A stretch of DNA of 64,000 bases from Yuukianura sp. NJ FZ-2021 (taxonomy: Eukaryota). Where the stretch lies: positions 434,001 through 498,000 of the forward strand of contig CM102290.1 of the NCBI GenBank assembly GCA_046563655.1, in the 5' to 3' direction. Position 1 is the first letter of the stretch. Every line of letters begins with the position of its first letter. A model generated the notes under the pieces. That model worked only from the letters and a program-made list of their open reading frames with translations, was not told where the DNA came from and made no database searches. A program made the translations under genes and the position numbers. Below, piece after piece: positions 3,793-49,387 of this stretch.

Positions 3793-5708
3793 AGAGTCTC
3801 ACAGTGTGGAATATGATTTGAAGAAAGTTAGGTCGTAGGATAAGAAAGATTTAGAGACTTTCACTTGAAGCTGAGAATGGCTTTCTTGTTCCATCTCCGT
3901 TTATAGCCTCCAGCCTCCTTCCTTTGGGTCACAGGATTCCAGCCTCATCTAATATTGACATCATCAAGTTGCCCAACTTTGGAGGGGGCCACGAGGGAGT
4001 CATCTGCCCCCCCCCCCTTTCCTCTAAACCCCCCCCCCCCATTGCCACCCCGCCCCCTCCTACAAACATAATTGAAGTTGAAGGGATTATTAATAAATCA
4101 GGATGATGACGGGAGGTGGATGAAATGGAGCCACAGGTAATACTCTCTTCATTGTTTCAGACTTAAACGACTTTCTCCCGCCAACGACTTATCTTTTCAA
4201 AACTTTCTTTTTTAAGAAAATCCTTATTTTGAAAAAAACATGAGCCATTATCACACTTCCTCCCACTAATTTTAAAGTCTAACTTTAAACCTAACCCAAG
4301 AAAGTTTTTAATGAAAGTTGAAAAAGTTTTGTGCCATTTTGTTTATTTAATTATTATCACCAGCCTCCAAATCCTTCCAGCCCACTTTTAATATGCAGTC
4401 ACTATAAATTTAGCGTGATAGAGAAAGTTATACTACATTGTCTTGGGACTAACACAAAGAACAGGGGCTTCTGGAGGCGCCAAAATTCAAAAGAACAATC
4501 TAATCTCATCATCATCTTCTACCCCACACAAACCACTGCCCATCACCTTCTACTGTTCTTTTTTAAATCTCCCTCCAAATTCAATTTAGAACAAGCTTCA
4601 AACTAACTTTTCTAAAATTAAAAAAAGTCAGTTTCTTTTGTTTTTCAAAATTTTGGATTTTGAAGGAAAAAAAAGTTTTTTGAGAAAAACAATAAGCAAG
4701 ATAGACGCCGTTCAACAATTAATTTTTAAATTTTTTTAAAATTTAGGTTGGGCTAATCTAGATGCTATTGAGCGACTTGCTGCTAATTGTCGTAAACTGG
4801 TTAGTAATATTTTTTAAAATTTTGCAAATTTGGAAATTTTTTAGATTTTTTTTTTTTAAATTTTTTTAGGTTGTAAATCAAGAAAATGAGGTATTATTTG
4901 GCAGTAGCCTGAGGGAATGAAATTTACTAAAAGTTAAGATGAGGAAGAATGGGTTTCCAAAAGAGAAAGTGTCCCGCCTCTGGCCATTCTCTGTCTCATC
5001 TTCCCCAAAAGGCGGATGTATTTGAAATCATTTTGAAATAGATAAGGGAAATGAGTTTTTTCCAGGATCAATCCACATTCCGAACTTGATTATCCCGAAG
5101 GTTCTTAAATTTAAAAAAAGAATAGGCGCCAATTTTAAATTTTCAAATAATGGTGGGAAAAACACTCAACCAAAAGGAGTGAAAGTCGGTATCGCTAAAT
5201 AACAGCATTTCAAACTTCCTGCCTTAATATTCAAAATGTCATTTGGCACGAACGAAAAAAAAATGAAAAAAAAAAGCCCAGAATTTGAAATTTTCCTGGA
5301 TACGTCAAAAAATCAAATTAAAAAAACAGTTTTTTTTTAAATTTTGGCCTTTTGAAGAGCGATACGTGGGAAACTGTTTGAAATGGAGAAGATTTGGTAT
5401 GTGGAGGTTCAGTGCGTTCTTTAATTTCAAAGTTGCTTTGACTGGGAATCGAACTCGCGGCTTGACAGAGAGTAGGCTAAAGTGGTGAAAGTGCGGGAAA
5501 GGAAGCCGCAGGGTTCAATTTCTCCATTTGAGTTTTATCTTTCAAGTAATTCAGCCAATCCTTCTTAAAATGGATCAAACGAAACTCGAGAACGCCACTT
5601 TCTCTTTGTCGTTTATTTAAAAAAGACGCGCTAAACAATCATTTCAAAACTCCTACTTTTCTAAATTTAAAATAAACTTTTTCAAAAAATTTAGACCTTA
5701 GACACCTT

Positions 5709-28982: not shown

Positions 28983-31673
28983 ATGGATTGGTCGACAAAG
29001 CGAGTGCTGTTATGTCTGCTGCTCAACATCGGGTTGTTACTGACCGGTCCTTGTCAGCTGACTCATGGAAATGTTGACGATTCTGAGGCAGAAGTAAGTT
29101 GGGATGTTGGGAATTGTAAATACAGACTACAGTGTGTTAATAGTCGACGCTGTTTCCCTAATCTTTCCATAGGTTACCGTTGAAAACGATGATACGGAAG
29201 TTGCGGACGATTACACAAGCCCGGAGCCATCTGACCCATCAGCTGTCTACTTCCATGAGAACTTCGACGACGTTGATACCGCCGAGAAGAAGTGGGTTAT
29301 CTCTCGAGCGCAAAAAGAAGATCAACAAGGTGCAAAATACGAAGGACTGTGGTCATTCCAATTGCCTCAACGAGTTCTGTTCAACAATGACCGAGCGTTA
29401 GTGCTCAAGTCGAAGGCAAAACATGCTGCTATTTCTGCGAAGCTGAATCGTCCGTTCAAGTTTACGACAAAGCCACTTTTGGTACAGTATGAGGTTACCT
29501 TTCAAAACGGAATGGATTGTGGAGGGGCATACATCAAACTGCTGTCACAGTCGGACAAGTTCGAGTTGGATAAGTTTACGAACAAGTCTCCATATACCAT
29601 CATGTTTGGCCCTGACAAGTGTGGTAACGATCACAAGGTAAATTATTGACCTCTTACGTCTACGTTTAGCTTATAAATGTGTTAAATCTGTCTTACTAAC
29701 TAACTATGTTTGTTTTTGTTTAGCTTCACTTCATTTTCCGTCACAAAAACCCAATCACTGGTGAGTTTGAGGAGAAACATGCTCCAAAACCTTCGAGTCG
29801 CCTTGAGGAATCTTACACCGACAAGAAGCCACACTCGTATCTCTTGAAATTGGTAACTTATTTTAAAAACGTTTCATTTGTTGACCTTTTTTGATCGATT
29901 TTTCTGTTCTGAACAGTATCCCAACAACAACTTTCAAATTTATGTGGATGGGAACCTCGTTAGCAATGGAAACCTTCTGGAGGACATGTCGCCTCCTGTA
30001 AACCCTCCAGCTGAAATCGCCGACACAAAAGACTCCAAACCCTCAACTTGGGATGATCGAGAGAAAATTCCGGATCTTACGACTACGAAACCAGACGATT
30101 GGGATGAAGATCTGCCTGCCATGATTCCAGATCCTAACTCTGTTATGCCAGAGGGATGGCTGGAGGACGAAGAGGTGAGTCCTACATGGCTTAACTCAGT
30201 TCCTTATGCTGTTATGCTGATCATAAACTTCAAATTGATGTCTTTTCAGCCTATGATTGATGATACGACTGCACAGAAACCAGATGATTGGGATGACAGT
30301 ATGGACGGTGATTGGGAACCACCGAAGATCAATAATCCGCTTTGCGCTAATGCTCCTGGATGCGGTGAGTGGACGCCTGCCCAAATGCCAAACCCAGAGT
30401 TCAAAGGTATTCGGTTTACGATAAAACGAAGTTACTATAGCTGATTTTCAAAATTTTGAAAAACTTCAAATAATTTTTTGAAATTAGGCAAGTGGAAACC
30501 CCCAATGATTCCTAATCCAGAGTACAAGGGACAGTGGAGTCCACGGATGATTCCAAATCCTGCCTATTTTGAAGATAAGGAGCCGTTCAAGATGACACCA
30601 ATTGTAAGCCAATACTTTTTTTAATCATCTGTCATATACACTATAATTACTTTTACTTTTTATCTCCAGGGCGCCCTCGGTATTGAACTTTGGACAATGA
30701 CTGATCAACTTCTGTTTGACAATTTTATCATCACTGATGAAGAGAGCGTTCTGGACCACTGGATCTCTCGAACATATGATCTCAAGCGACGTGTTTTGGA
30801 CAAAGATGCGGTAAGTTTCACTATCACATTACAAAATGTTATCATAAATGACTTTTTAGTGGACAAAACCTTCAGAGTTCTTATTACGGAACGTTGATGC
30901 GGAAAATGAATTACCATGTTGGAGCATGGACTGTGTACTTTTTCTATGTCACTATCCCGCTTGTCTCCTATGCCTTGTACTTGTGGAATCTTTACCTCGA
31001 GGTAACTAATTGGATTCATAACTAATGATTTTTTGTACTTTTGTGCTTTAGGAAAGTGTTGTGAGTCGTATATTCAATTACACGAATGCCCATCCATGGC
31101 TCTGGGCAGTATATTTGGTCGTGATTGCCTTACCAGTAGTGCTCATTCTCACCTTCTGTTGCGGCAGTAGTCAGGTATTTAGTCAACACAGTTGATGTTA
31201 CGCACAGTTTATTAAAAATGTTAGTTTTTAAATCAATTTCTTAGATTTGTAATGATTCTGGTTTGGATTTAGGAAAAACGTGATGCTAGGACCAAAAAGA
31301 CTGACGAGTATGTGAAGGACGATGAGCCGGAAGTTGCTGAAGAAAAAGTGGAGCCCCAAGAACCAACGGAGCCTGTCGCTGCTCATTCCTCTTCTTCGCG
31401 TTCTAGTCGCACTGATCCAGATAAGGAGAAGTTGGAGCTGGACGACGGGGCAATGGGTGACGTTCAAGGCGAGAGCGAAGAGAGTGACGAGGATTCGGAT
31501 TTCAATGAGGCCACCACTGAATCGGAAAACGAAGGGCCAGCAGTACGCAAGGTAACGCGTCAACTAATGGTAGTTAACGTTAACTTTTTAATTTTAACTA
31601 CAATTAGTGACTAATTAACTTTATTCAATTGCAGGGTTCCCCTCCGAAACGTCGGACCCAACGAGCTGACTAA
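28983..31673 (+). CDS. CANX: Calnexin
   Basis: Signal peptide, [41 protein letters not shown]-domain KPDDWDE repeats, WLWAVY transmembrane segment with CC, KKTD and an acidic tail ending RRTQRAD*. Confidence 0.97.
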
Positions 31674-32378: not shown

Positions 32379-34236
32379 CTAAACAGCTTGAGATTCTAGA
32401 GAAGATGCTGGCAGTACTGGCTGATTTTGCTTTTTCCTTAAAATGTTGGTGATGAAGAATTCGCCAGCTTTGTAGGAGCTGCGCACGAGTGGCCCACTGG
32501 CAGTATACAGAAATCCTAGTTCGTCGCCCATCTTGCCCCAGTAAGAAAACTTTTCTGGAGTGACGTACTCGACTACTTTCAAATGTCGTTTCGTTGGTTG
32601 CATGTATTGACCCAAAGTTAGACAGTCAACGCCGACACTTCGTAGATCTGCAAACAACATTCGCAGAATTGCAAATTAAATGTTGCACTATATAGCGAAC
32701 AATTATTGTTGAAGAATTTGCAAAAAATTACCTTTCATGGTTTGCAGAACTTCGTCGTCAGTTTCTCCCAATCCAAGCATGATTGAAGTTTTAGTGAGAA
32801 TCGAAGGCTTGAATTCTTTGGCATGTTTTAGCACACTCATTGTTTGCCTGGACAAAATAAAGTCAGTCAGTTCCGAAAGTGACTAAAATGATCAAAAATG
32901 TATGTCAGATGTGAATTTACCGATATTTTGCACGCGGATCTCTCACAAACGGAGTAAGACGTTCAACTGTTTCAACATTATGGGCAAAAACATCCAATCC
33001 TGAGTCGACTACAGCCGAAACTTGATCGAGATTCCCACGAAAGTCGGGTGAGAGCACCTCCACCAATAGTTTCGGCACGTCCTGCTTCAGATGTCGTACA
33101 GTTTCGGCAACATGTTTCGAACCCCCGTCCGGTAAATCATCTCGATCCACTGACGTTAGAACGACGTAGTCCAGACCCCATGCTCTGATGGCTTCGGAAG
33201 TATTCTTCGGTTCGTTGGGGTCAAGTGGTGGTGGAGCTCTGGAGGTCTTCACGGAACAAAACCGACATCCGCGAGTACAAGTATCTCCCATGAGCTAAAA
33301 ATTTAACACAATCAATTGATTTAGTAAGGCAGAAAAAAATCGACGACTTACCATGATCGTGGCTGTGGCGACATTATGTTCACCACCACCCCAACATTCA
33401 CCGATGTTTGGACAACGAGCCTCTTCACAGACTGTATGAAGGTTGAGACCCCGCAGATTCTCTTTCAGTTTAGCAAAGTTCTTTCCAACTGGAATTTCAG
33501 TTTTGAGCCATGGTGGTAACCTTAGCCGTTCGTAGTCTCCGGGTTCTCGTTTCAGTTTTTCTAAATAACAAAAAATAGCAAGTATGAAACACATTTAGTA
33601 GTGTATAAAAGTGAACATTTTTGAATTTGGGAAGTTGTGAAGTTAGTACGTGGAGGATTTTCGTCATGGACTTCGATGTCAATTAGTGGTTCTCCGACGA
33701 GCGAAATCTGGTCCAAGTCGTAATGAATTTTGCGAACTACTCCGCTATACCGTGACTTCAAAGTTACACAGGAATCTTCACTGTGCACTTCACAAACAGG
33801 GTCAAACTTGGATACTTTATCTCCCTCTTTGACGAACCTAACCAATCGAACAAAGAAAATTCTAAGTTGTAAATATTGTCGTTGTCGTTTTTTGTCTTAC
33901 CATTCTTTGATTCTAACTTGAGTAACTCCTTGGCCAATTTCTGCTAGTTTGAAAGGTACCACGGCTAACCTAGGGGCTGCCGAATGAAAATGCGAATATT
34001 GGTATCTGAAACATGTTCGACTCTCCAGCCTCATATCACTGATTGCTCGGTTTCTAGCTCCAAGTCCTCGCAGTTCTTTACTCAGCACAGTAACCTAAAT
34101 CCAACAAGATTCAAACCAACATTTCATAAAAACTACTTAGATACAAAACGGTTTAAAAATTGATTGAATTTGTTACTGTTCGATGTGCTTGAAGTGTTCT
34201 AGTAGAATTCAGTGCACAGCGGAATATGCAGACCAT
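32379..34236 (-). CDS. LIAS: Mitochondrial lipoyl synthase with an N-terminally fused BCKDH-E2-like lipoyl domain lacking the acceptor Lys (~469 aa)
   Basis: Exons 34236-34177, 34094-33901, 33837-33650, 33560-33352, 33294-32921, 32847-32732 and 32647-32379 total 1410 nt in one frame. Motifs [12 protein letters not shown] (auxiliary cluster), CTRGCRFC (radical SAM) and RSSY are intact. The LIAS identity is secure; the fusion is inferred from splice phase. Confidence 0.9.
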
Positions 34237-34914
34237 TTTGTTGGGGTCAGTCGATCCAGAAAATCTAGATTGTGTTTCAAATCTGTTTAAAATCAATTGA
34301 AAGTGAAATTCATAGGCAATTTTAGTGACTTCTGACTTACGGAAGGTTAACCGGATCAGCTGACGAGATGAAATGCTGGACGTGATGAAAGAGAGTGGAT
34401 TTACACGGCAATGAAGACAGCTAGAAAGTAGAGGTCAAGGGTCAAGTGACCCACACTCTGTATGAAGAAATCATCAGTGTTTAGTGTGTTATCTTTATCA
34501 AGTTTCACTGCAGAAAAGACATTCTAAAAACATTAAATACAAGTCAGCTGATCCGATTTTTTCAAAATGTGGGACGGCGGTTTGCAGAGAACAAAAAAAA
34601 ATCATATTTTTGAGGAATTTTATTTTTAGATTTTATTTTTATTTTCAAAAAAAGAGAAAGTGATTCTTTTTTTGTTTTGTTTATTTCAAGGTCTTCCCTG
34701 TCAGTATTTCGAGGGAGGAATCGATGGAACTCAACATTCGTGGCAATTCTGGAGAGATGTAGTACGATCTACATTGTAAGTATTTGTAAAAGTCAGCAAC
34801 AATTAATTAACAAGTTCAGTGGTAAACTATGTTTTTATGTATTTCGTCTTTAATCTAGGTGACGACTGATGTGCTGTTGAACTGAAGCCCAGCCAGTTCT
34901 TGCAACTTGCTGAA

Positions 34915-36740
34915 ATGGAAAATGAAGTGGAAGCTCTGGGGGTGTTCACTGCCGAATGTCAACAACTTCTATCTCAAATCCAGAATGGTGTCATCAGGAA
35001 CAGGCCACCGGAAGTATCTTCCTCCTCTCCAAGAGTTACTGGAATGTTTAGCAGGGCATGGGACAAGTTTTCACAGACACATCAAAGTTCACCCACCAGA
35101 ACAAACAACAACATTTCCAATCGCTACAACTTCCAACACTACAGAAGCAATCAGAAGAAGGATACTTCCACCGTAGGAAAACTGAGACTGGCAGCACAAG
35201 GAATCACTTTGGCCAAATTAAGTATTTTTCTGAACGTCTTGGAACTGTGCCTCATGATCTCCATGTCTCTGATAATCTTTTACGTGATAATCGTTGTTCA
35301 TAAACCAACTCAAGCCTTAATCTCCAGACACACACAAGATCTAATCTATCCAGTCATGCGTGGACTCAGACTTACTACGTTACCTGTCATTAGAGTATTT
35401 CCCTGGATTTCGGGTAATGCCAATACTTGTTGCTTACTAGTACAGTATTTTCTCGTACATAGTACGCCCTCGCGTGTTTAATACGCAGTTTTAAATTTTC
35501 GTAAAACACTGTAAGTTAACATTAGAAATTAACATGTTACGAATGTAATGAATTTAAGCTTGCTTTTCGCTGAAACAAAAACGTTTTTTATTACATATTT
35601 TCTGAATTTTTGTAAATAATACAGGAATTATGTGCGAGAAAATACGGTATTTATTTTCTTGAGTCTGAAATATCTTTGTTTTTCGTTTCATTCCAGAGTT
35701 CTACGAGGAGGATTGCCTAATCACAAATCCCAACTATTTTAGCAAGAGTTCGTACGAATGCTGGCCCTGCGAGGACTCGAAACAAGTTATTGATGTGACT
35801 GGGATATCCAATTTCTCAAGTATTTTTCAACATGGTGGGATTCCATTCCGTATCCGGGTAAAACCGTTCAACTCGATTACTCCATTTCAGTCTTTGAACT
35901 TATGATGTTTGGTTTTAGCAGAGCACAAAGGAATACGACTTCACGATAATCGAGAAAATCTACTTGGAAAATACACATTTATTTCAATCGGTGACTCTGA
36001 GTTCTAACCAACGCCACATTCAAACTTTTGCAGACATCTTTCCACTCAATCGTACAAAAGTTTTCCGTCGGCATCCTAATCTCCATGTTGCTTGGTAAAT
36101 TTCTTTTAGACGCAACACTTTCGTCAATACTATACTTAATTTTTCCACCAAAACGTCGTTTCGTTCATGTTTTTTTTTTTTTAGGAAAATCAACAAAGTG
36201 GCTTATGCTAGGTATCTTCGGAAGTATTTTTCAAAACCGTACATTATTCCAAACACAACAGAAGTATCAATCCAGCGCTTCCTCTTCCTGGACAATCATG
36301 ACTCGCCACAGTACTCCATCGTTAGTACAACTTTTACATTAGTATTGAGAAATTGAAATTATCGGCTTTTGAGTTCACTGATTTCGAAATCCAGAAAGTT
36401 TCGAAACAGAAAGCACTTTACGTTACACTTTTTTTTGCAGCCATTTACCGAATTTGAAAACGTTTTCCTGTTCCAAGCTGGTGGGCGTCGTCGCATTGTT
36501 CTCGTTCCAACGGAAACTTGTTACAAGAAATGTCGAGTGATCTCCATCGTTCTTCAGCCAGGAGACGTTTGTAAGCAGTTTCATTTAAGTCAATTAACGT
36601 TAGTCAGTTAGTGAATGTAATTACTTTCTATAGTGTTCTACAACTGGCTATACTGGCGACCACAGTCTCTACCAATCAAGTCTTCCAAACTACACTCCAG
36701 TGATAGCATCAGCGTCAGCTACGTCGGTAGTTTCTACTGA
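34915..36740 (+). CDS. C6orf89/BRAP (bombesin receptor-activated protein)-like type II membrane protein
   Basis: A transmembrane segment is followed by LRLTTLP, DCLITNP...CWPC and LVPTETCYKKCRVISIVLQPGDVLFYNWLYW. These match the C6orf89 pattern as I recall it (IRLMSLP; PPFQCRRHC...EPGD...W). Confidence 0.7.
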
Positions 36741-46238: not shown

Positions 46239-49200
46239 ATGTTGCCATCTTTGTCCTTCTTTCGCAACGATACATGTCCATTCTTCAAGGCTGGACTGTG
46301 CGAACGTCCTCACTGCCCGTTTCGTCATACTCGGAGGTCATCCTCATCGTCTCCGTCAAGTAAGTAACACTAAAAAGCGTATTTCTTGATTAAAACTTCT
46401 GGGGGTACCATAATGACGTATTTTGTTTGGCTTAGAACGTCGTGACGAAAGTTCAAAGGCATCAGAAGCTGTCTATCCAACACCAGACTCTGATGCTGCC
46501 GTGCTGCCATTAGACCCTCCTGAAACGTTAAAAATTAAACCAGACTTGAACGGGAAGAAAGTCGATGTCGAGGATACAACCAAAGCTATCACTAAGAAGA
46601 CTGAATTGGCACAAAATCCACCGGAAAAGTCCGCTCCAAATATCAGCAGCTCATCTGCACCAGCAGATACTGGCAAGCCAGAATTGGATGAACAGCAACG
46701 ATTAGAACAAGAATACGAAAACATTCTTCTTGGCAGCGACGATGAAGATGAAGATGAGGATGTCATCATTGGGTCAGACGTAACCGACCAATTTCTACTA
46801 CCTCAAGATACTGATGCCGAAGATGCAGCTGAACTGGTTGATGCTTGCTACAAAGAATGGCTAAAGTCAAACCAGGAGGAGCCGAAGGCCAAGAGTCCAA
46901 CAAAGGAAATCAAAAAGGATGAACCAAGGCAGCAATCTTTTCATTCGCCTAGCAAGAAGTCTGAATCGGACAGTAGTGCTTCCTCATCTTCTTCTTCTTC
47001 ACCTTCCAAGCGCCGTTTGGCTCATCATGCAGATTCATCCAAGACATTATCTGCTCGACCTCCAGCAGCTCTTCCAAGGAAACAACAACCAACTCCTGCT
47101 CAGACGCTTCAGCGACGTCTGGAAGAAGCACGTAAAGCTAAAGCCGAAGCTGACGCCAAAGTTGCTACAAATCGGGTCGTTCCTGGCAAGGATACACTGC
47201 CGAAGTCTCCAATTTCAAAATCACCATCTCTTTCTCCTAAACGTAAATTAAGTGAAACGGGACTCGGAAGTTATCAAAGAAGCAGTTCGGATCCTGTTCC
47301 TGCTCCGAAACCGGCCGTGACAAAAACAGTTCCTCAAACTAACGAAAAAGGGGCAGCGAGAAAGGCCCACACTCCGGTTCTCACTCCTCCGGTAAGATGG
47401 TTTCAATTACTAGTTGATTCTGACTGATTTATTGACTAACTTATTGTTTATGTTTTTCAGGAAGTACGGCGTACTCCAACAATTCCCGGGGACAGTATTT
47501 TGGCTTCCAAAATTCCTTTCATAACTCGCAAACATACGCTGGAACAATTGTTCAAGGCCTGTGAAAACATTTACGACAGTAACGAAGACGCTTGTCAACG
47601 AGCCGTTTCGGAAGAACTTGCTCTGGCTAAACACAAAAGTAAACCGGTTTACATAGGAGCATCGGCAAACTGCTTGAAACGACTGAGAGACGAAGCAGCA
47701 ACTGTTGTCAAAGAATCCGCAGGTACGAACTGTTTACAACGTTGTTTAAATCGAAATTTTGTTTCTTTTTTCTTATAAGGTTATGCTATAACTCCTTGTT
47801 TCTTGATTTTAAATTTTGTGAATCTCACATCTTCCGCTACCCTTACGCGCTTCCGTTACGTTAGCAATTCGCAATCAAAACGGTAGATTCATATAGCAAA
47901 AGCGTAAAAAAGCGTTAAAAGAAAACAAGATTGGTCCAAAACCTGTTACGGCATTTGTGTAAATGGTCGCTATAGCAACCTTGAACTGTTTAGTAAAGTA
48001 ATTATTGATAAACTAACAATGACTTTGAAGTGTATGTTACTTTCATTCTGTTTTATTCAGGTCAGCTGAATGGTTCTGCCAAGATGCCTTCCAGAGTAGA
48101 CCCAAGACAGGAAGCTGAATTTGTAGAAAAACGATCTCTTTACCAAGCAATGAAGAAGTATTTATTAACTCCTGAGCAATTGACTGACAATGGATTTCCA
48201 AGGACTCATCCCAGTGGAGATCGCGGTAAGTTGCAAGTTTTTGGTTACAAAGTTCAAGTTTTGGGTTTAAATTCCAAATTTTTAAAAAAATAAAATGTAT
48301 ACCTGGTGTTTTTTTTAGGCCGAATTACTACGAAGAGTCGCAAGTTCAAAACGCCTTACAGCGGAGATCCTTCCAAGAGAGTCTGTGATCGCTGTCACAA
48401 GGAATTTACGATTGGTCTGGACGGAACACCCTGCATCAAGGAAATGTGTATCTACCATCACGGTAGAAATTTCAAGCGACGCGGTAAGTTTAGTCTTTCA
48501 CTTTCAGAATTTCATAAGTAAGTTTTTGTGTTTTTGAAATTTTATGTTTTTTTTCAGTTCAAGGAAATTTCGAAGGACGATACACTTGCTGTGACGGTGA
48601 AGCGAACTCTCGTGGTTGTACTGTTGCCAATCAGCATGTTTCTGTTCATCCGTCGGATGAAATTTACGGGTTCGTGGCTGCTGTTAAGGACGCTGGAGAT
48701 GACCTAATGATGGGCAGCGATCCGTGGGATGTTGTGGTACGATTCTGCAATTTTTGGGTTGTCCAACGTAATAATCTTCGTTTTTGACCATGTCCAGGCC
48801 TTGGACTGTGAAATGGTTTATACCACCTACGGAAACGAATTGGCCCGAGCTACCTTCATTTCACTGGACAAAAAAGTGTTGTAAGTAATACCATGAAGTC
48901 AACATTTTTTGAAAAACTTGTTTTTGAAAAAGTTTTTGAAAGTGCTTTGTAAAATTCCAGGTACGATGAGTTGGTAAAGCCAATTCATCCTATCATTGAC
49001 TACAACACAAGATACAGTGGAATCACTGAGGACATGATGAAAAACGTCACCGTGACGCTGACTGACGTCCAAGCCGTGATGCTCACCAGAATTCGTCCAA
49101 ATTCGATCCTGATTGGACACAGTTTGGAGTCTGACTTGATGGCACTCAAAATCAAGCATGACTTTGTCGTGGACACTTCCGTGATGATGCCGCATCGTAT

Positions 49201-49387
49201 GGGGCCTCCTTACAAACGGGCTCTGAGGACTCTTGCGTCGGACCACTTAGGAAAAATTATTCAAACCGGTGAACATGGACATGACAGTGAAGAGGATGCT
49301 GCCACGGCGCTGGAACTCGTCATCTGGAAAGTCAAGGAAGATCGGATGATCCTGGGCTGCGGAGATCCAAAGAGACTCAAGTACTAA
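46239..49387 (+). CDS. REXO1: RNA exonuclease 1 homolog (DEDDh; elongin A-binding protein 1-like)
   Basis: N-terminal MLPSLSFFRNDTCPFFKAGLCERPHCPFRH, Cys/His domain CDRCHKEF...CIYHHG...YTCC, and exonuclease motifs ALDCEMV, IGHSLESDL and GHDSEEDA. Confidence 0.92.
47737..47983. mobile_element. MITE-like insertion in a REXO1 intron
   Basis: Ends caacgttg...caaccttg, flanked by the 9-nt direct repeat AACTGTTTA (47728-47736 and 47984-47992). Confidence 0.6.

Follow-up and report, generated by a model that had tools for sequence, protein, structure and literature searches.

Introduction

Lipoyl synthase is a costly enzyme, and one of its own clusters is destroyed per turnover. To our knowledge, the mitochondrial control of lipoyl synthase is poorly understood and the role of its eukaryotic N-terminal segment is unclear, and we know of no lipoate-pathway enzyme with a built-in acceptor decoy. 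Attachment of octanoate or lipoate to a lipoyl domain requires the hairpin lysine exactly at the turn, and E1 and the lipoylating enzymes recognize lipoyl domains chiefly at this lysine turn. Lysine-less lipoyl domains are found in the periplasmic adaptor proteins of tripartite efflux pumps, where the lipoyl fold serves as a cofactor-free structural module; these domains are bacterial, very distant in sequence from the one described here and unrelated to lipoate metabolism.

The described systems closest to the locus analyzed here are mitochondrial LIAS/Lip5 and the lipoyl domain of DBT, the E2 of BCKDH. According to a report on human LIAS, its structures were made with residues 65–372, residues 66–110 form a belt round one side of the H-protein interface, the Ser of the RSSY motif ligates the auxiliary cluster, and LIAS in eukaryotes probably acts on the H protein only (PMC12246082). 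In plant plastid acetyl-CoA carboxylase, the BADC proteins, which are relatives of BCCP that carry no biotin, keep a biotinyl/lipoyl-fold carrier without the modified-lysine motif and are reported to act by partner binding, as an inhibitor or as ‘glue’ (PMC11926652). Among carrier domains that lack a cofactor, are retained by selection and function through binding, BADC may be regarded as the closest precedent. Unlike the predicted protein described here, in which a dead domain would be fused to a cofactor-making enzyme, BADC is free-standing and belongs to the biotin branch, and the likeness is an analogy of principle between members of a shared fold family only.

Results

Structure of the LIAS gene

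The window, a 64-kb stretch analyzed at its full length, is eukaryotic DNA with short AT-rich introns. A minus-strand gene at 34236–32379 was modeled with seven exons, all with GT-AG introns, and one 469-aa frame. The model was compared with two DNA runs, X1, which may derive from the source sample, and X5, which belongs to a different study and a second organism, and with two metatranscriptome runs, X7 and X8. The features of the gene are as follows.

34177–34236, minus strand: exon 1 (predicted), ATG at 34236 and 20 codons, basic presequence; GT donor after 34177
33901–34094, minus strand: exon 2 (predicted), remainder of the presequence and first lipoyl-type strands; from translation, tblastn and AG/GT borders
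33650–33837, minus strand: exon 3 (predicted), main lipoyl-type domain and 7-residue linker; from Pfam and 1k8m
33774–33776, minus strand: acceptor-position codon GAT, Asp106; from alignments, unchanged in X1 and X5
33756–33785, minus strand: remodeled hairpin, exon-3 residues 18–27; from the conserved-column comparison
33561–33649, minus strand: intron 3 (predicted), 89 nt, GTACTAAC...TTATTTAG; join of the putatively DBT-derived part and LIAS, phase 1 on both sides
33352–33560, minus strand: exon 4, LIAS N-terminal belt and Cx4Cx5C auxiliary-cluster motif; LIAS_N E 1.4e-23, 3′ border RNA-confirmed (X7)
32921–33294, minus strand: exon 5, radical-SAM core, CTRGCRFC; Radical_SAM E 4.8e-14, both borders RNA-confirmed (X7, X8)
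32732–32847, minus strand: exon 6 of LIAS; both borders RNA-confirmed (X8), tblastn
32379–32647, minus strand: exon 7, RSSY motif and stop codon 32381–32379; 5′ border RNA-confirmed (X8)

The LIAS part is intact, and exons 4–7 are expressed and spliced: introns 4, 5 and 6 (33295–33351, 32848–32920 and 32648–32731) are spanned by spliced RNA contigs of 100% identity. As in mitochondrial LIAS/Lip5, the whole core crystallized from the human enzyme (8tsk, 8ugo, 8trw) is encoded by exons 4–7, with both cluster motifs and RSSY. The radical-SAM cluster motif CX3CX2C is present as CTRGCRFC in exon 5, RSSY is present in exon 7, and the Cx4Cx5C cysteines align to C106, C111 and C117 of human LIAS, in the numbering of PMC12246082. 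Identity to arthropod-type LIAS over exon 5 is 82–85% (P0006, 85%; P0010, from the springtail Orchesella dallaii and the nearest protein with a named source, 82%).

The LIAS homology begins abruptly. Exon 4 was aligned to human LIAS residues 66–131 (E 3e-32), with the second residue of the exon opposite L66, so that the join falls at human LIAS 65/66 and the upstream domain would be tethered by seven residues to the start of the substrate belt. This linker is HDENPPQ, with HDENPP in exon 3 and the Q split over the exon 3/4 junction (C|AA). The match to Pfam LIAS_N (PF16881) covers profile positions 52–96 of 96, and positions 1–51 are missing; these positions are dispensable for the crystallized core, residues 65–372 (PMC12246082). 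The usual LIAS N-terminal segment was absent from the whole 64 kb in tblastn searches with three LIAS proteins and in six-frame motif scans. Unlike in LIAS, this eukaryotic segment is replaced in the predicted protein by a DBT-type presequence and a lipoyl-type domain. With 11 R+K vs. 3 D+E, the N-terminal 64 residues are basic, as expected of a mitochondrial presequence, which we predict them to be. Exon 2 ends in phase 2, and a Trp codon (TG|G) lies across the exon 2/3 junction. The splice phases match in the 469-aa model, in agreement with a sequence-only reading of this locus that had taken the domain to be fused to LIAS, here across a predicted junction. We consider it very likely that the lipoyl-type domain and LIAS form one fused gene.

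A lipoyl-type domain with Asp at the acceptor position

Exon 3 matches Pfam Biotin_lipoyl (PF00364) with E 2.8e-9 and 37.1 bits (cut-off 22.1). When it was compared by phmmer with 1k8m, the lipoyl domain of BCKDH E2, an ungapped alignment of 56 residues was obtained (E 1.1e-18), and the fold-determining columns of the DBT lipoyl domain (1k8m/1k8o) are kept. Taken by itself, exon 3 is short of the junction Trp and of two strands of the lipoyl-type domain; a full-length E2 of 510 aa (P0004) aligns by tblastn over 34064–33669 (E 6e-21). Unlike in DBT, the lipoyl-type domain is not followed by an E3/E1-binding domain or an acyltransferase core in the window: a tblastn search of the 64 kb with P0004 revealed the lipoyl part only, with neither the peripheral-subunit-binding domain nor the acyltransferase core.

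The sequence-only reading had proposed that the acceptor Lys of this domain was replaced by Asp. The minus-strand interval 33794–33770 encodes C-E-V-H-S-E-D-S plus one base, and its codon 33776–33774 is GAT, which encodes Asp106 in the spliced model. In the phmmer alignment to 1k8m, Asp106 is placed opposite the K of SDKA, and its column is K in 173/173 related lipoyl-domain stretches taken from the best 150 of 843 representative matches. The replacement is thus present at GAT 33776–33774, where 1k8m and all the related stretches have K.

A Lys codon in the raw reads would have contradicted the proposal. None was found: the contigs of both DNA runs keep GAT, and codon 33774–33776 is identical in X1 (depth 214) and X5 (depth 4.7). 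Because X1 and X5 match the window at these positions, a Lys codon masked by assembly error is unlikely. The description of the domain as a DBT-type lipoyl domain without the acceptor lysine agrees with the Pfam Biotin_lipoyl match, the 1k8m alignment and Asp106. Judged from its sequence, the domain is a homologue of the E2 lipoyl domain, yet it is predicted not to be an acceptor. With Asp in place of the acceptor Lys and a rebuilt turn around it, the domain would no longer accept octanoate or lipoate.

The remodeled hairpin and the kept scaffold

To define conserved columns, agreement of at least 90% among the related stretches was required, and 21 columns were obtained in all. At hairpin positions 18–27, five of the seven conserved columns are altered, vs. 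none of the 14 elsewhere (Fisher P = 0.001). The alterations are D to E, K to D, A to S, I to L and T to K. Unlike in the DBT lipoyl domain, SDKA is SEDS, and the next strand carries the I to L and T to K changes. The surroundings had been described as still well conserved, and this holds for all 14 columns of at least 90% consensus outside the hairpin. The change is focused on the hairpin rather than being part of a general decay, and the fold scaffold appears to be kept.

The turn became two charges more acidic by the change from SDKA to SEDS. The notion of a strongly acidic hairpin segment, which was considered, had to be softened: the net charge of positions 18–27 is −1 vs. the usual 0 (133/173 relatives), and it is only −1 because T27 became K.

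Selection on the domain and divergence between runs

The X5 contig at 33493–34071 has 11 differences from the window, of which nine passed the listing rule and were used; eight of these fall in exons 2–3 (one in exon 2 and seven in exon 3). All eight coding differences are synonymous. The probability of this outcome by chance is P = 3.4e-5, since it was reached in 6/200000 simulations in which the same types of change were placed randomly. The frame of the domain is therefore under purifying selection, and the expectation that the domain is retained by selection, as opposed to evolving neutrally, is upheld. These differences indicate that the frame is translated and constrained, at least across the short distance between X5 and the window; the conservation is documented between two very close organisms only, by one independent DNA run (X5, depth 4.7). 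For the proposed conservation of the Lys loss the outcome is mixed: Asp is kept in X5, but no other relative with SEDS was found in our searches. In the LIAS exons covered by X5 there is one non-synonymous difference, S346N, and the allelic differences of X1 in exons 4–5 are all synonymous (6/6).

The X5 differences are unevenly spread. Exon 3 holds 7/14 of the listed differences vs. 12% of the covered bases (P = 7e-4). Eight listed differences, seven of them synonymous changes in exon 3, fall within the 176 bases of 33623–33798, and the flanks of this block are nearly identical to the window. Either a divergent haplotype block or gene conversion from another copy with an identical protein product could account for it.

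Local divergence was also observed within X1. At 33004–33154, two X1 contigs of 151 bases (depths 97 and 124) differ from the window at three and two sites, respectively. All five differences are synonymous and lie in LIAS exon 5, a pattern that suggests two haplotypes diverging by ∼3% in local pockets. The cluster of differences in exon 3 looks like mosaic haplotype divergence rather than a domain-specific feature.

Search for relatives

When 1.84 billion cluster representatives were scanned with HMMER, 843 matches to the domain were obtained. Among the best 150 of these, identity is at most 61%, the best relatives are E2-type (55–61%), the SEDS form is absent, all having K, and no LIAS motifs were found. 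Conversely, not one of the 120 nearest LIAS proteins listed carries PF00364. When longer homologous proteins of the domain were sought, two matches were obtained among seven candidates, both ordinary E2s, and the search for homologous proteins of near-equal length gave no candidate.

In metagenome contigs, 52 loci match the domain, the best with 55% identity. The SEDS form is in none of the 40 alignment rows available for these 52 loci, and the E2-type rows keep K. In the best relative, locus L001, the lipoyl domain lies in one uninterrupted frame, and this locus is uninformative on the intron positions of the parent gene. LIAS was seen in only one of the 52 loci, L008, where a LIAS end (1–291) and a lysine-bearing lipoyl domain (4001–4162) are separate matches ∼3.7 kb apart. 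The arrangement in L008 looks like an ordinary neighborhood rather than a fusion.

P0010 and P0006, the nearest LIAS relatives, keep ordinary LIAS N-termini (DGPDL..DF...YKG), which suggests that the fusion event is recent. No second species sharing the domain-LIAS architecture was found in the protein, representative or metagenome searches, and no natural LIAS/lipoyl-domain fusion was found in the literature. The predicted protein would give a known enzyme a new architecture, one limited so far to two very close organisms.

Proposed origin and fate of the domain

The locus is probably a real, lineage-restricted chimeric gene with a predicted exon 3/4 junction. The explanation that we favor, and to which we give an even chance, is that (i) a lineage-restricted chimeric LIAS gene arose by capture of 5′ exons of DBT; and (ii) the dead domain is an inert, non-modifiable cap. 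A duplicate of the first DBT exons, with the start codon, the basic mitochondrial presequence and the lipoyl domain, would have replaced the 5′ part of LIAS and would be spliced in frame onto the exon that starts at the H-protein-binding belt. The DBT part would then supply both the translation start and import, and the mature enzyme after import would consist of a folded lipoyl-type domain, the 7-residue linker and the complete LIAS core. The lysine and the recognition turn would have been lost after capture because, next to two Fe-S clusters, an arm on LIAS that could still be modified would draw off lipoyl groups to no purpose or even with harm. The domain, which must still fold, would remain at the N-terminus next to the substrate belt as a stable cap that cannot be modified, and any catalytic effect that it has would run through H-protein docking.

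We infer the exon-capture origin, the import and the role of the domain from these features, and the inert cap is the default reading: an active role of the domain would explain the strictly conserved amino acids equally well. If the domain is inert, the locus would be a tidy case of chimeric gene birth with limited reach, in two very close organisms only. As proposed, it would be a clean example of how a new gene can form: exons would have been captured at the 5′ end, and the domain that they encode would then have been disabled in a targeted way. A LIAS whose N-terminus has given way to a selected acceptor look-alike that cannot be modified, placed at the substrate belt, would also be a natural experiment on how acceptor docking is governed.

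Alternative explanations

An active role in cis was suggested by the sequence-only reading, in which the domain was a pseudo-substrate that could plug the enzyme. The tethered domain, mimicking the H protein in cis or acting as an autoinhibitory pseudo-substrate, would occupy or gate the acceptor-binding surface of LIAS and tune lipoate synthesis. The join exactly at the beginning of the H-protein belt, the specific rebuilding of the hairpin in a kept fold and the strict purifying selection on the frame are what such a role would lead one to expect. The turn, more acidic by two charges, would face a LIAS surface that is positive where it meets the mostly negative H protein, as stated in the structural report (PMC12246082). 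Over the whole of segment 18–27, however, the net charge is just one unit below that of most relatives. In addition, that report describes human E2 lipoyl domains as being without helices α1 and α5, which the H protein uses on LIAS, and their loops as clashing with the radical-SAM domain (PMC12246082). Both features weaken a simple DBT-type pseudo-substrate plug, though not other contacts. We think that a cis-acting mimic is unlikely. The narrower proposal of a belt-tethered acceptor decoy, whose acidic turn would gate or compete with H-protein docking as a built-in cis-regulator of lipoate synthesis, is distinctly unlikely, and the new way of regulating lipoate synthesis that had been envisaged may exist as a possibility, not as a finding.

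The second alternative denies the fusion. The DBT-like exons would be a separate small gene or a transcribed relic ending in intron 3, and LIAS would start elsewhere, at an ATG at 33594 or in an unseen exon. The RNA contigs reach only 33215–33499 and 32611–33023 (X7 and X8). Because they leave exons 1–3 and the exon 3/4 junction uncovered, we infer the join solely from gene structure, and a separate upstream gene would be compatible with this coverage. Intron 3 has a weaker donor (GTACTA) than the other introns, and its retention would yield a 176-residue product; both features would suit a gene that ends there. An ATG at 33594–33592 on the minus strand lies within predicted intron 3, 34 nt upstream of exon 4 and in the same frame. 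Translation from this ATG would place 11 mostly hydrophobic residues before the LIAS belt, and the product would have neither a basic presequence nor LIAS_N positions 1–51, which speaks against it as the start of LIAS. The ATG may be a possible minor internal start that gives a domain-less product.

The structure of the gene argues for the join. The splice phases of exons 3 and 4 match, and the sole AG between 33650 and 33561 is the one that precedes exon 4. The composition of intron 3 is intron-like, with a GC content of 27%: the three predicted introns are 63–89 nt long with 26–30% GC, and the RNA-confirmed introns are 57–84 nt long with 28–33% GC. The GC content of exons 1–3 is 43–44%, and that of all seven exons is 41–50%. 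When exon 3, exon 2 or both were skipped, translation stopped after 84, 26 or 22 residues, respectively, so that a LIAS product from ATG 34236 needs the domain exons. A free-standing relic, moreover, would not give 8/8 synonymous differences. We regard the absence of a fusion as quite improbable, and the fused gene remains the preferred reading.

Very improbable is a docking module, in which the domain would bind the partners of the DBT lipoyl domain (BCKDH E1, LIPT1, E3 or the kinase) and localize lipoate supply: the conserved fold and non-hairpin surface (14/14 columns), the purifying selection on the frame and the partner-binding biotin-less BADC proteins, a precedent described in PMC11926652, would fit it, but the lysine turn, the part that is recognized, is exactly what changed, and the earlier suggestion of docking to lipoylation enzymes or E1 loses ground for the usual mode, since it is precisely the hairpin that was altered.

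Neighboring sequences

An ORF with a weak, sub-threshold match to the RNase_T exonuclease family (E 7e-4; 20.6 bits vs. a cut-off of 24) is located at 48953–49384 on the plus strand. A plus-strand ORF of 203 codons at 34870–35481, with no Pfam match, begins ∼630 bases upstream of the LIAS start codon and could represent exon 1 of a neighboring gene with divergent transcription. If this ORF is a gene, there is little space for additional upstream LIAS exons. At the other end, a calnexin/calreticulin-family gene lies at 29173–31600 on the plus strand, with two exons that match Pfam Calreticulin (E 8e-45 and 3e-52); exons encoding an acidic tail come next, and the gene runs toward the 3′ end of LIAS in convergent orientation.
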